A DNA stretch of 64,000 bases, from NCBI RefSeq assembly GCF_026571515.1, contig NW_026852812.1, positions 126,256 through 190,255 of the forward strand. The letters run 5' to 3'. Positions 1-46,698 of the stretch are shown piece by piece. The position numbers and the translations under genes were made by a program. Origin of the DNA: Ruditapes philippinarum. Taxonomy: Eukaryota. How positions within the stretch are numbered: position 1 is the first letter of the stretch; the number at the start of each line of letters is the position of its first letter. The notes under the pieces are model-generated. The model was not told the DNA's origin. It worked only from the letters and a program-made list of their open reading frames with translations, and searched no databases.

Positions 1-738
1 GCTTTTGTCTGTTTCCCAAATAAACTAGTTCTAATAGGCAGTTCAACTAATTACTATCTTGATTTTTCTACAAGAGAATGATGGACATTTTTTGAACTAG
101 AAAAATAATGCAGTACCCATTACCAATTCAACAATCAATTAATATTCAAAAACTTTAATTATAAGTGACTCTATCAATCTGTGTCTAAAATTTATCTCAG
201 TTCTCCAATGAAAGATAAACACTATACTTTAGAATATCTGTACAGAGAATTCTGTATGCAATACTTTCACTAACATATTAAAAAGTCTTAAGTTCTGGAG
301 CATGAGCAAATTATAGACCATATAGTCCTGTTTATCATGTTTTTCCATTTCTTTTTCTGCTCATTTTAAGTCATATTTCGCCTATCAATCCACCATACTA
401 AAGATTACTAGGAAATTTTTCCAGCTTTATTTCACGCATCAGCCAACACTTAAGTAGAACCACTGAGATTCCATAAGCTAGCTGGATAGCTCCCGCATAT
501 GAAAGAATCCAAAGTGTCTGAATTTATGAAAACTGTGTTGAAATTGCAAGCATGACAATAAGCTAAATGAATCAGAAATATCAGCGACACTTAGATATTG
601 TAAAAAGACATCACACATATAATTTATATCAGACGCCAGTGATACACAGAATCACAAATCAGTTACGTCACATTTTTTTATAAGTGACATTGTATGATAA
701 GATATCTAATATACTTATCTAGTTATATCACCTTATCA

Positions 739-947
739 AGAAATGATATCTAAATAACGATTTATACCTGATTTATTGGTGGTAAAATATTCTTTATTGA
801 CACAGTTTCGTAAACTGTCTGGAATACGACCAACAACGGCCCGTCGTATCTCTCCAGCAGCCATTTCTCGTAATTCGGTCAAACTTTGCTCACTGTAGAA
901 TGAGGAATGAGGTGTGCAGATCAAGTTAGGACTGTCCTTTAAAGGAC
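739..947 (-). CDS. CtBP: CtBP distal exon. It is either terminal, with a stop at 736-738, or spliced onward from a candidate donor near 768 to an unseen C-terminal exon.
   Basis: Translation (S)[54 protein letters not shown]... matches human [55 protein letters not shown]. The acceptor is tttttttttcag. The frame agrees with ORF 736..966(-), and a tcag|gtataaat donor candidate sits at about 768. Confidence 0.75.
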
Positions 948-1662
948 CTGAAAAAAAAACAAACACCCAAACTATCAGCTTATTGACATATTAAAATCAA
1001 AATAAACAGTGTATCTAACCCTGTAATTTATACCATGGAAGGGAATTCAAATGGGTTCTATAATTAAAACAAATCTATTATCAATGTGGTGAAAAATAGC
1101 TATTTTTAAATTAATCCAGGACTCAGTGATTTTTTTTCCTGTATTTTACAGCTTCCCCTAGCTCAAAATAGGTATATTTTCCCCTAAAAAAGCTAGTATT
1201 TTCCCCTGAAATGCCCTGTGCACTTCTTCACCAGAACAATGACTTAACAGCATCTGACTTAATATATCAGCTAGAAGACAGAAAGCTGTCCCTATAGCCT
1301 CTGCTATGTACCATGTATGTTAAATTGAATTGAAATTGAAAACTTTATAAAATTTGTGGGCAAGTTCCATTCTCAGTTGTTGGAATTCCATTTTCCTCTT
1401 TTCTGATTTATCGCACTTTATTTTCCCCTTTAGAAAGCCACAGGTTGTCTTGAAAATTGGAAAAAAATCACTGCAGGTCCTTTTTCAGGATTTTTTGGTC
1501 TAGTTAAATGTTAGCTAATTGGTGTTGCTCAATATATTTGTTTTTCTATCTACACAGTAGAATAGAAAATTTTAGTTATAAATGTGCAAATCTAGTTGTT
1601 AATCTACTCTAAATTTCGGCAATATAATATTATCATCTTCACATTAACTTGGTGAGTCTTAC

Positions 1663-1794
1663 TTTGTGATATAACAAATGGTTCATTCTCGTGTACATCA
1701 AGGGCTGCTGCCCGTACTCTGCCATCCTTTAATGCTGAGGCTAGGGCATGTTCATCTACAAGACCTCCACGTGCTGTGTTCACAAGAAACGCTC
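1663..1794 (-). CDS. CtBP: CtBP exon with the catalytic His/Glu region, phase 1 to 1.
   Basis: Translation [43 protein letters not shown] matches human [43 protein letters not shown]. The acceptor is tgtaacattacag and the donor is A|gtaagactcacc. Confidence 0.85.
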
Positions 1795-2689
1795 CTGTAA
1801 TGTTACAAGTATACTACTGTTTTAAAATAAATATTTACGAAAATTGTCCATGACTAAAATACTCGCAATAAAGAAACACCTTTAACCAAATGCAATTGCA
1901 CTGTTCCTGTTATTTCCGAGTATCAAAGCATTTGTTAAGGTATAAACAGTCACAAATCATCACATTAGTGAAATTACTGGTTAACTCCAAATAAATTTAA
2001 AAGGACTTAATCTGTTACTGCACTAAGGTGACAAAATATTCAAGATTTACCAAAACTGCAATTCCAAAAGATTGTTGCAAAAGATGCTGTATCATAATTA
2101 AACAAAGCATCACCATTTCTGTCTCCTAATAAGTCTTGTAAATGAAATACAACTAATGCTTTTTTTTTTCCTAAGTAAACTTTTTACTGTCAAGCAACAA
2201 ATACATATTCATGCCATAACAATTTTGTTTCCAGCTATAACTGTAGACCTTGTACCTGATATAAAGAAGGACTTCTCTTCACAATTATTATTATTCATAT
2301 TATTTGTACATAATCTATATAGATGAAGTATTTTTGCTTCTTTTTCCTTGTTGGTAATTGATATAATGATATTGAATTAGAATTTAGTCAAAATACTACT
2401 TTGTTTACATTTTGCTTTCTTTACAACACATTACTACACATTCAGCACTACTTTCTCCAGCTGTTTAACATGCTCTTAATCCATTATTAAAACATTATTA
2501 AACACATGTTTGACATTTCTAAAGAATCTAATAAATGTAGATTTCTAAGGCATAATGTGCCTTTAATGCCAGTAGAACCACCAACTTCGAGTAAGTTATA
2601 TGGATACCTTGCAGACATTAAAGAATTAAAAGTCCTTCACCCCTGATTCAAAAACAAACACATGTGATAGACATATGATTCAAAGCCAG

Positions 2690-3050
2690 CCACGGTAACA
2701 ACTTGACCTATGAGGCCACCGCTACCACAGAAATGGTACCTTCACTCGCCAAGTCCTCATCAGAAAGTGAAACAATGACCGCTACCAATTTAGCCACGAA
2801 GGTCACTCACTATAAACAGTTCCCTTAATTGTCAAGTCCCCTTCATCAGAGGAAAAACAGTGACCATAACCGACTAAGCAACACTGAGGTCACAATAAAG
2901 ACAGAAATGGTACCCTTACTCGCCATGTCCTCTTTATCAGAGAAGAAAACAGTTACCGTAATCCACTTAGCCACTGAGGTCACTATATATGGTACCCTCA
3001 CTCACCCAGTCCTCTTCAGAGAATGTAGTATACTGAGCGACTAGCGTGTG
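2690..3050. repeat. Tandem repeat of about 76 bp in about 4.5 copies, within a CtBP intron.
   Basis: The unit gaggtcac...aaatggtacc(t/c)t(c/a)actcgcca(a/t)gtcctc.tcaga.a...acagt.acc...ttagccac recurs. ORF 2829..3044 is an artefact. Confidence 0.75.
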
Positions 3051-3083
3051 AGTACTAATATGTTGCACTTACGTGGCGACTTA

Positions 3084-44426: not shown

Positions 44427-44560
44427 GAGTTATTGGACCAAGAGAGATGGATGGAGCTTGTACAACAATTCAGATATGAGAATTTCAAGTTACATCAATT
44501 AAATAATGCATCTGTCTTCACTGTCACTCTACAAGCTGGTTTGTCAGCACTTAAAACACC
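44427..44560 (+). CDS. MAEA: MAEA exon 7, phase 0 to 2.
   Basis: Translation [45 protein letters not shown] matches human [45 protein letters not shown]. The acceptor is ttttcctgcag, the donor is CC|gtatcc, and the frame comes from ORF 44307..44720. Confidence 0.92.
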
Positions 44561-44794
44561 GTATCCTTTATTCATACAAGTCATGGTAGTTTTGTTTAAA
44601 TGCATTTGTTCTTGCTTGATTGTGAAGAAAAAGTTTGAATGTTACCCGAACTACTTTCAAGTCTGCTTCTTTGAACTAATCACTACTGGTGTCATATGTG
44701 GAATCAAGGTTATGACTTAAGGAGAGTTCAAACACACGATCTGTGTGTTGAGAACACTGTTTACTCTCTGTCTTTTCTAGAACTTTATTGTCAG

Positions 44795-45535
44795 TAAATC
44801 AAAGTGTCAGAGCAAATATAATATTGTCAGTGCAAGAATTGTATTGTCAGTGCAAGAATTGTATTGTCAGTGCAAGTATGGACCATTCCGGTTTTTCGTA
44901 GCGGAACATTTAGCCACACCTTTTCCATTCATTGCTAGGTCAACTGCTCACAAACAGTATCACAAACAAAACCATGTGTTCTTTTGTGCAAACCAGGTCA
45001 ACCAGTGACTATGTATTATCTCAGTGTAGTAATTGGATATCAAGTTAGCCAATTTCTATAAATCTGTAAACACTGGAAAGGTCCATTGTATTGTTAGTGC
45101 AATAATTGTATTGACAGTGAAAGAATTGTATTGACAGTGAAAGAATTGTATTGTCAGTGCAATAATTGTATTGTCAGTGCAATAATTGTATTGACAGTGA
45201 AAGAATTGTATTGACAGTGAAAGAATTGTATTGACAGTGCAAGATCTGTAATGTCAGTGAAAGAATTGTATTGTCAGTGCAAAGAATTGTGAAAGAATTG
45301 TATTGTCAGTGCAAGATCTGTAATGTCAGTGAAAGAATTGTATTGTCAGTGCAAGAGCTGTAATGTCAGTGAAAGAATTGTATTGTCAGTGCAAGATCTG
45401 TAATGTCAGTGAAAGAATTGTATTGTCAGTGCAAGATCTGTAATGTCAGTGAAAGAATTGTATTGTCAGTGCAAGAATCGTAATGTCAGTGTAAGTATTG
45501 TATTGTCAGTGAAAGAATCGTACTATCAAAAGTAT
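44795..45535. repeat. Minisatellite with a 20-bp unit (attgtattgtcagtgcaaga and variants) in about 36 copies. It lies in MAEA intron 7 and ends about 60 bp before the exon 8 acceptor.
   Basis: Direct visual periodicity. Variant units include gaaagaattgtattgacagt and gcaagatctgtaatgtcagt. Confidence 0.9.
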
Positions 45536-45593
45536 GTTTGAGTTTATGCAAGCTTTTTAATAGCTTATTAAATTCCTTTACATCAATCATCAG

Positions 45594-45789
45594 ATACTGT
45601 TACAAAACTGAGGGTAACAGTAAGAATGCTGAATGTCCGGTTTGTAGCCGGAACCTAAACAAACTAGGTCAGCACCTGCCATACGCTCACTGTGCTAATT
45701 CCAAATTGATATGTCATATCAGCGGTCAAGCTTTGAATGAGCATAACCCACCTATGATGTTACCAAACGGATATGTATACGGTTGTAAT
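45594..45789 (+). CDS. MAEA: MAEA exon 8, covering the RING-Gid-type zinc-finger region, phase 2 to 0.
   Basis: Translation [65 protein letters not shown] matches human [65 protein letters not shown]. The acceptor is caatcatcag, the donor is gtaagtg, and the frame comes from ORF 45538..45882. Confidence 0.93.
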
Positions 45790-46596
45790 GTAAGTGTAAA
45801 CATTATTGTAATTCTTAAAATTCAACAAAATGGTATAATATTAAAGTTGCACGCCTTCAGCAAATACGGTATATTTCGATGAAAATCAAACCTAAGAAAA
45901 ATGTAGTAAAGTTTTTAGGAAAGGTATAAAGATTAAAAATTCTAGCAATACTTTACATGTTATGTGCGATTAACGACCGATTTTTCAGTATTCATAACTA
46001 TATTAATTACGCACTAAGGGCTATTTTTGCATATTGTGACCTCTTTATTGTAATTAACATGGGTTGTAAGTGCAATTGATGATGTGAAAGTTGTATTCTT
46101 TTGTAACTTCACAATATAATACTGTTAAATACATTTTCAAATTTTCATGAAATAAGCATGAATCTGGAGGCGTGCTGCTTTAAAGAAACAAAGTATAAAA
46201 ACATTCACATTTTGGCTCTATAATCTAAATGTCTCCTATTTATGTTGAGTTATGCATTATTTTAGAAGATATATCTTTTCAGGCATACAATGTCCATCTT
46301 TGTTTACTGTATGTAGCATTATTGATTACTACAGTAGTTAAACACTACATTGTACATAATTAAAAAAAAAACCAATCTATTTTATTGTAATAGATGTATA
46401 TAATCTATAATACAAACATGAACAAAGTATGATGTGAGAGCCTTTCAATTTAAACCGCAAAATAAAACGGAAGCATAATAGCTGAACTGTATTTTATTCA
46501 CTATTTTATAAGTTATCCTGTGCACTTAATATAGTTATGATTTTGATTTAATATTTCTATGATTATTTCAATCTTATTTTTGTTTGTAAATTACAG

Positions 46597-46698
46597 GCCC
46601 TCGAGGAGATGGCTGCAAGGAACGAGGGTAATGTTTTCTGCCCTCGAGGGAAAGAGGCTTTCCATATTGAAAAAGCAGAAAAAGTTTTTGTGATGTGA
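46597..46698 (+). CDS. MAEA: MAEA terminal exon 9, including the TGA stop.
   Basis: Translation ALEEMAARNEGNVFCPRGKEAFHIEKAEKVFVM* matches human [30 protein letters not shown]. The acceptor is gtaaattacag, and an AATAAA lies about 150 nt downstream. Confidence 0.88.
   Translation, partial: ALEEMAARNEGNVFCPRGKEAFHIEKAEKVFVM

Follow-up and report, generated by a model that had tools for sequence, protein, structure and literature searches.

The genes for CtBP and MAEA stand head-to-head in the bivalve Ruditapes philippinarum, and the same divergent pair is present in other molluscs, an annelid, a starfish, amphioxus and a pufferfish, from which we conclude that the pair predates the protostome-deuterostome split and is at least bilaterian in age. 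We analysed the bivalve locus in a stretch of 64,000 nucleotides (NCBI RefSeq assembly GCF_026571515.1, contig NW_026852812.1, positions 126,256 to 190,255 of the forward strand), hereafter the window, which is AT-rich (~33% G+C) and carries intron-rich animal genes. CtBP is an NAD(H)-binding transcriptional corepressor that resembles D-2-hydroxyacid dehydrogenases, and MAEA (Gid9) is the RING subunit of the CTLH/GID E3 ubiquitin ligase. With moderate confidence, we favour the explanation that this is an ancestral bilaterian head-to-head pair held together because the DNA between the two 5' ends contains regulatory material that cannot be split.

CtBP and MAEA are divergent neighbours in the window

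CtBP exons were located by tblastn, using a human CTBP1 probe, together with explicit reading of splice sites. Six exons joined to give 349 amino acids that are 99% identical to CtBP of Mercenaria mercenaria, 96% identical to CTBP1 of Mactra antiquata and 84-93% identical to other mollusc, brachiopod and arthropod CtBPs, and all of these matches carry PF00389 and PF02826. The glycine motif of the NAD(H)-binding Rossmann fold (GxGxxG) can be read directly in the exon at 3541-3846. The C-terminal exons, including the disordered tail, lie beyond the left end of the window, a truncation by the window edge that does not count against the identification of the gene. A first coding exon was found by tblastn with the Mercenaria N-terminus, to which 19 of 20 residues are identical (MENGKTFQAVKRPRLDVPAT). 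This exon lies only 2 kb upstream of the exon that begins at 6628 and ends in phase 1, the split codon A/TG supplying a methionine before the ASIRGP of exon 2. The CtBP exons are as follows; the first six have AG/GT borders and align both to Mactra and to a transcript from a related species.

768-947, minus strand: last CtBP coding exon within the window
1663-1794, minus strand: CtBP coding exon
3085-3210, minus strand: CtBP coding exon
3541-3846, minus strand: CtBP coding exon with the NAD-binding GLGRVG motif
4622-4766, minus strand: CtBP coding exon
6468-6628, minus strand: second CtBP coding exon
8619-8756, minus strand: CtBP start-codon exon; ATG at 8679-8677, coding part 8679-8619, encodes MENGKTFQAVKRPRLDVPAT

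MAEA is complete in the window, with nine exons that encode an uninterrupted protein of 390 amino acids. The protein is 91% identical to MAEA of Mactra, 82% identical to that of Dreissena and 57-77% identical to named MAEA proteins of molluscs, annelids, arthropods and deuterostomes; the matches carry PF10607 (CTLH), some also PF13445, and a Gid-type RING motif (CPVC...HCANS...) can be read in exon 8. About 200 bp upstream of the start codon, a 35-bp block common to Mactra is the probable MAEA core promoter or transcription start site (TSS) region.

32742-32776, plus strand: conserved block CCGCGGGATTCCTCGCGCTATTCAsTTGAACTCT
32967-33005, plus strand: MAEA exon 1; ATG at 32967-32969, encodes MADIKALEHPTLK
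37702-37887, 38986-39189, 41715-41837 and 42205-42281, plus strand: MAEA exons 2-5
43713-43824, 44427-44560, 45594-45789 and 46597-46698 (stop codon included), plus strand: MAEA exons 6-9

An earlier sequence-only reading of this DNA had read CtBP exons on the minus strand at 739-6628 and, on the plus strand, MAEA from an ATG at 32967 to an end at 46698, with the two 5' ends facing each other. These coordinates, strands and orientation proved accurate. The same reading had predicted a gap of roughly 26 kb containing an unseen CtBP 5' exon; such an exon does lie within the window, but as a coding exon at 8679-8619, which leaves 24.3 kb between the two start codons.

The divergent pair is conserved across bilaterian animals

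To place the locus in a wider context, we viewed the neighbourhoods of MAEA orthologues, taken among the 120 best matches listed, with a flank of 10 kb at most. In other species, CtBP was called as the opposite-strand gene model directly upstream of MAEA with two 2-Hacid_dh domains, and in three species this call was backed by an exon match (88-90% or 72%). All the species below have CtBP (minus) and MAEA (plus) on opposite strands; in the first five the two genes are divergent neighbours, and in Mactra they are divergent on one chromosome.

Lottia gigantea: 6.6 kb between gene models
Capitella teleta: 5.2 kb from MAEA to the CtBP core, 2.3 kb to an upstream THAP exon
Branchiostoma floridae: 1.0 kb between gene models
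Takifugu flavidus: 0.8 kb between gene models
Acanthaster planci: 4.1 kb between gene models
Mactra (CM103820.1): CtBP 5' end at 10,988,855, MAEA start at 11,036,382, 47.5 kb apart

With window CtBP as the tblastn query, we recovered a genuine CtBP exon 2 from both Lottia and Takifugu, at 89% and 90% identity respectively, and the Lottia CtBP model is 88% identical to window CtBP. The linkage is thus found in five taxa (Mollusca, Annelida, Echinodermata, Cephalochordata and Vertebrata), or four phyla when amphioxus and pufferfish are counted together as chordates, and the orientation is 5'-5' in every species where the pair could be resolved. Weaker hints of the same adjacency come from Nucella, where the locus tags run consecutively (029933/029934), and from Strigamia, where the UniProt accessions do (T1J0Z7/T1J0Z8). 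The proposal in the sequence-only reading that this is ancient microsynteny mirroring that of vertebrates is borne out by these loci: the adjacency is present in the lophotrochozoans Lottia and Capitella, and the 5' coding exon of CtBP lies in the window instead of elsewhere in the genome.

A third gene, encoding an HDNR domain (PF15115), follows MAEA tail-to-tail in Lottia, Branchiostoma and Acanthaster, giving a block of CtBP (minus), MAEA (plus) and HDNR (minus). The HDNR genes lie on the minus strand at the following places in the extracted loci.

Locus L002 (Lottia), 22859-23816
Loci L004, 22823-27254, and L005, 19442-24248 (both Branchiostoma)
Locus L010, 18989-21351

The MAEA-HDNR adjacency is absent in the window, Capitella, Takifugu and Athalia. 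Unlike this link, that between CtBP and MAEA was kept in every resolvable case, and the longer survival of the head-to-head link than of the tail-to-tail link fits a constraint between the 5' ends.

Two of the loci show peculiarities of their own. In Capitella, the CtBP core beside MAEA (locus L003, 3260-4755) is almost intronless, with residues 7-347 falling in a single tblastn segment; its protein is 72% identical to the bivalve protein, as against 81-86% for other annelid CtBPs, and keeps the C-terminal VHSTT...PESSEVH tail. The lack of introns and the lower identity point to lost introns and accelerated evolution, with the position of the gene conserved. In Lottia, a weak match (E=0.4) to the CtBP first exon (MDKGRLAQPPVKKPRFE; MDKGR...KKPRFE) lies at 5015-4965 of locus L002, 1.5 kb upstream of the annotated CtBP 5' end, and the N-terminus of the model looks aberrant. 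If this match is real, the published CtBP model is probably mis-annotated and the gap to MAEA is ~5 kb.

Transcription of CtBP probably starts upstream of the start-codon exon

The start-codon exon of CtBP has a 5' untranslated region (UTR) of 77 nt that is preceded by a splice acceptor (AG at 8758-8757). This acceptor, with its polypyrimidine tract and tttcag, is conserved in Mactra (77 nt upstream of the ATG in the window, ~70 nt in Mactra), and nucleotide conservation between the two species begins only ~42 nt upstream of the ATG. The start-codon exon is therefore not the first of the transcript: its acceptor implies one or more non-coding exons upstream, with transcription starting nearer to MAEA.

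A CtBP transcript contig from a related species (Logan SRR22411493) aligns to all seven CtBP exons of the window. For its first 88 nt, the best local match window-wide is at 11518-11443 on the minus strand, with a score of 20 against 14.3 ± 1.2 (maximum 19) for 60 shuffles. A CAG/GTAAAT donor lies 19 nt past this match, about where the exon-2-like 5' UTR of the transcript begins.

11424-11521, minus strand: candidate non-coding CtBP 5' exon, with a transcript 5' UTR match, a CAG/GTAAAT donor and its own tttcag acceptor

On these grounds we propose, with moderate confidence, that 11521-11424 is probably a non-coding CtBP exon. As this candidate exon has an acceptor on its upstream side and the transcript contig starts 3 nt inside it, the true TSS of CtBP may be nearer still to MAEA than 11.5 kb. 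A smaller patch without CpG depletion (observed/expected ratio 1.05-1.29) lies at 10400-11150, in the intron that separates the candidate exon (11.5 kb) from the start-codon exon (8.7 kb), and could be an alternative proximal promoter.

The interval between the two genes

The most upstream evidence of a CtBP exon (11521) is ~21.2 kb from the conserved block in front of MAEA. We found no Pfam match at E <= 0.1 among the 82 stop-to-stop open reading frames (ORFs) of at least 55 amino acids between 8.7 and 32.9 kb, no tRNA in a tRNA scan and no Rfam family anywhere in the window. Likewise, when 772 ORF pieces of at least 20 amino acids were compared in translation with the corresponding intergenic DNA of seven other species, no match was credible. 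We therefore rejected an intervening gene on the basis of the Pfam, tRNA, Rfam and translated searches, which short exons of a lineage-specific gene would escape; the sequence-only reading had said that an unrelated gene here would weaken the case for a bidirectional promoter.

Two features of the interval stand out.

24184-24246: conserved non-coding element, 84% identical to Mactra over 64 bp
29700-32100: CpG-rich stretch, CpG observed/expected ratio 1.0-1.7 against 0.45 for the whole window

The conserved element is collinear in the two bivalves, at upstream distances from MAEA of 8.7 kb (window) and 8.3 kb (Mactra), and is more conserved than most MAEA coding exons (70-83%). It contains CTGTCA and CAGGTG, the latter being an E-box or a donor-like site on the plus strand (CAG/GTGAAG). 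The CpG-rich stretch is the strongest such region of the interval and abuts MAEA, with up to 23 CpG per 300 bp and G+C of up to 45%; none of its ORFs is recognised by Pfam, and nothing equivalent was seen in front of Mactra MAEA. Either an unmethylated regulatory region or a young insertion could account for the stretch.

Approximately 10% of the interval sequence is repeated elsewhere in the window. A minisatellite at 12408-12738 consists of 63-bp units (5.3 copies) that are 100% identical, an identity that points to a very recent expansion of the array, and arrays of 38-bp and 36-bp units lie at 8085-8472, near CtBP exon 1, and at 22067-22483, in the interval. Copies of an interspersed repeat are found at 15194-15625, 48093-48410 and 56793-56969; its translation (...DQDPCC... 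/ ...AQAGLDPCW...GFVVTRL) resembles a dispersed repeat common in bivalve genomes. A palindromic element at 27884-28273, with long ORFs on both strands (GSEYPSLGNPPMGG... / GPEYPSRGDPPIW...) and a CpG observed/expected ratio of ~1.0, looks like an inverted-repeat insertion of the miniature inverted-repeat transposable element (MITE) type.

THAP exons of CtBP lie beside MAEA in other phyla

In Capitella and Branchiostoma, a THAP zinc-finger exon (MPTTCGFPNCKFRSRY..., of the C2CH type, MPTTCGFPNCKF...) precedes the CtBP core on the same strand. These exons (MPTTCGFPNCKFRSRYRGSDD.RHFYRVPKKP...) have the following positions.

Locus L003 (Capitella): 7742-7584 and 5085-4957
Locus L005 (Branchiostoma): 1915-1736
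Locus L004 (Branchiostoma): 3043-2864

The THAP exon of amphioxus or Capitella is 77-89% identical to the N-terminus of CtBP from the tubeworm Lamellibrachia. In Capitella, MAEA is 2.3 kb from these exons, which separate it from the CtBP core. In Branchiostoma, the exon is part of a CtBP model that comes to within 1 kb of MAEA, the exon itself being 8 kb upstream of that gene. The CtBP model adjoining MAEA in Acanthaster also carries a THAP domain. CtBP isoforms with a THAP domain are a known class, described for C. elegans CTBP-1a (Nicholas et al. 2008, as cited in bioRxiv 10.1101/2020.06.09.143248), and members are also found in nematodes and a fluke.

The Capitella, Branchiostoma and Acanthaster loci resemble this class, whereas the window, Lottia and Takifugu differ in having no THAP exon. 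By tblastn with this highly conserved exon, the best match in the 64-kb window was 20 bits (E=2.2), and none was found in the Lottia or Takifugu locus with a probe that gave E ~1e-30 in Capitella and Branchiostoma. This distribution suggests that the exon was lost in molluscs and vertebrates. The presence of THAP exons beside MAEA in other phyla indicates that the interval has been used for CtBP first exons.

Why the pair has stayed together

Under the explanation that we favour, the 5' ends of CtBP and MAEA would have faced each other since at least the protostome-deuterostome ancestor, across an interval of interdigitated material comprising upstream non-coding or alternative first exons of CtBP, CtBP promoters and the MAEA promoter. 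Most breakpoints within such an interval would be harmful, so that the linkage would persist. In compact genomes, where the gene models come within ~1 kb of each other, the arrangement would in effect amount to promoter sharing. The bivalve would have the same topology stretched to 21-24 kb, and here the constraint, if real, would act on the interdigitated interval and not on one compact bidirectional promoter.

Several points weigh against this explanation, in which we infer both the constraint on the linkage and its mechanism from sequence. The spacing varies ~60-fold (0.8 to 47.5 kb), and none of seven species more distant than Mactra (Lottia, Capitella, Branchiostoma, Takifugu, Saccoglossus, Acanthaster and Athalia) showed nucleotide conservation in the interval. 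All species in which the pair was confirmed have genomes known to rearrange slowly or are vertebrates, which is compatible with neutral retention. In Mactra, no gene was called in the 10 kb adjoining CtBP or MAEA, flanks on either side of a middle portion of 27.5 kb. Saccoglossus and the sawfly Athalia had no gene or CtBP exon in the 10-kb flank upstream of MAEA, a result that, with a flank of this length, does not count as a negative for the pairing. Finally, the candidate exon at 11.5 kb rests on an alignment of 76 nt at ~70% identity.

Neutral retention, in which genomes that rearrange slowly have simply not yet broken an ancestral order and selection does not act on the linkage, is in our judgement an unlikely account. 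The highly variable spacing and the lack of deep non-coding conservation speak for it, the Lottia, Capitella, Acanthaster and Branchiostoma genomes are noted for conservative gene order, and the HDNR gene is also kept in three of these species, so that change is slow in the neighbourhood as a whole. However, the pair has persisted in a teleost through whole-genome duplications, as well as in two heterodont bivalves whose intervals are large and rich in repeats. Several lineages that keep the pair have lost the link between MAEA and HDNR, and the orientation is always 5'-5'. In addition, linkage in at least four major taxa has been taken as statistically non-neutral (Irimia et al. 2012, PMC3514665). 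We consider it improbable that the locus is a genomic regulatory block, with CtBP as the regulated target, MAEA as a bystander and CtBP enhancers in the interval and in MAEA introns, which any break would cut off from their target. A developmental corepressor beside a housekeeping-type ligase subunit is a typical target-bystander combination (PMC3514665), and the collinear element at 24184-24246 surpasses most MAEA coding exons in its conservation with Mactra. However, this was the only such element, none was found in MAEA introns in the Mactra comparison and none is common to more distant species, and an interval of ~1 kb in fugu and amphioxus leaves little room for an enhancer-rich desert.

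Spacings between 0.8 and 47.5 kb are too diverse for one compact bidirectional promoter to explain the linkage in general. Shared bidirectional regulation, which the sequence-only reading had raised as a possibility, is in such a simple form unlikely in this bivalve, where the nearest evidence of a CtBP exon is at least 21 kb from the MAEA promoter. A classical bidirectional promoter could still operate here if CtBP had a distal first exon ~1-3 kb from the MAEA TSS, for example within 29.7-32.1 kb, followed by an intron of ~18-21 kb; we regard this as quite improbable. The acceptor upstream of the candidate exon and the contig that stops a few bases inside it are what alternative upstream exons would predict, the strongest CpG-rich region of the interval abuts MAEA, and in the Takifugu CtBP model 8.6 kb separate the first exon from the second, but only 0.8 kb separate it from MAEA. 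Against this, no sequence evidence of an exon near MAEA was found, the 5' UTR of the related transcript does not map to that stretch, and only the promoter block and one element are conserved with the 10 kb upstream of Mactra MAEA; Mactra also has no comparable CpG-rich stretch, so that the stretch may be a recent insertion. A more speculative and doubtful possibility is that the pair stays linked because the MAEA promoter region doubles as a distal CtBP promoter, which ancestrally would have served an isoform of the THAP CTBP-1a type, and that bivalves lost the THAP exon but kept the distal start, perhaps at 29.7-32.1 kb. If so, one bidirectional hub would have coupled the corepressor to a CTLH ligase subunit since the bilaterian ancestor or earlier.

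Downstream neighbour and intronic repeats of MAEA

MAEA is followed by an SMYD5-like (SET and MYND) gene, which was recognised with human SMYD5 as the query (E=6e-24 for the best exon); its first exon was named neither by Pfam nor by a PDB sequence search. We rejected an HDNR-domain gene downstream of MAEA in the window, as no HDNR exon was found at 46.7-64 kb and the SMYD5-like gene is there instead. Two minisatellites lie in MAEA introns.

35142-36120: minisatellite in MAEA intron 1, 166-bp units, 5.9 copies
45085-45522: minisatellite in MAEA intron 7, 20/40-bp units, 22 copies
54903-63030, plus strand: SMYD5-like gene, at least seven collinear exon matches, running past the right end of the window

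Relation to described gene pairs

Human CTBP1 (minus) and MAEA (plus), at 4p16.3, are immediate head-to-head neighbours with a spacing of ~40 kb. A gene list in PMC3826498 (UVSSA, MAEA, CTBP1, SPON2) is consistent with this order. The window has the same orthologues in the same head-to-head arrangement and differs in that the SMYD5-like gene, not UVSSA, follows MAEA.

Irimia et al. 2012 (Genome Res 22:2356; PMC3514665) catalogued 595 conserved ancestral microsyntenic pairs (CAMPs), which are unrelated genes linked in at least four major taxa. That study tested 5'-5' enrichment among CAMPs, found that 5'-5' pairs of conserved orientation have the shortest intergenic regions and proposed coregulation or regulatory blocks as causes. 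CtBP-MAEA, linked in five major taxa, fits the definition of a CAMP and has the conserved 5'-5' orientation of the coregulation subtype. The main text of the study does not mention MAEA or CTBP, and its genome set probably captured the pair. A full-text literature search for MAEA with CTBP or CTBP1 and synteny, with supplementary tables outside its reach, returned no paper describing the pair.

The pair departs from the coregulation type in its spacing. Bidirectional promoter pairs have <1 kb between 5' ends (Adachi and Lieber 2002, as cited in PMC3514665), a distance that the gene-model ends reach or nearly reach in Takifugu (0.8 kb) and Branchiostoma (1.0 kb), whereas the window (21-24 kb) and Mactra (47.5 kb) are far from this signature; with start codons 24.3 kb apart in the window, a more distal CtBP TSS could narrow the distance. 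Compared with genomic regulatory blocks (Kikuta et al. 2007, as described in PMC3514665), the locus is alike in having a developmental regulator, CtBP, beside the housekeeping-type MAEA with one conserved non-coding element between them, and differs in that no elements were seen in MAEA introns and no deep non-coding conservation was found; any enhancers are putative. From these comparisons, we conclude that CtBP-MAEA is a real but ordinary member of a described class of deeply conserved pairs, though apparently not explicitly described itself.

This is not a new kind of system, as hundreds of such pairs were catalogued in 2012. The practical gain is in corrected 5' gene models for bivalve CtBP and in annotation landmarks for the locus, namely the start-codon and probable non-coding exons of CtBP, the promoter block of MAEA and the conserved non-coding element. 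Five major animal groups keep the pair and its 5'-5' orientation, with a 60-fold variation in spacing, and this makes the locus a usable test case for telling apart three possible causes of a conserved order, namely promoter sharing, interdigitation of regulatory elements and decay that is simply slow.

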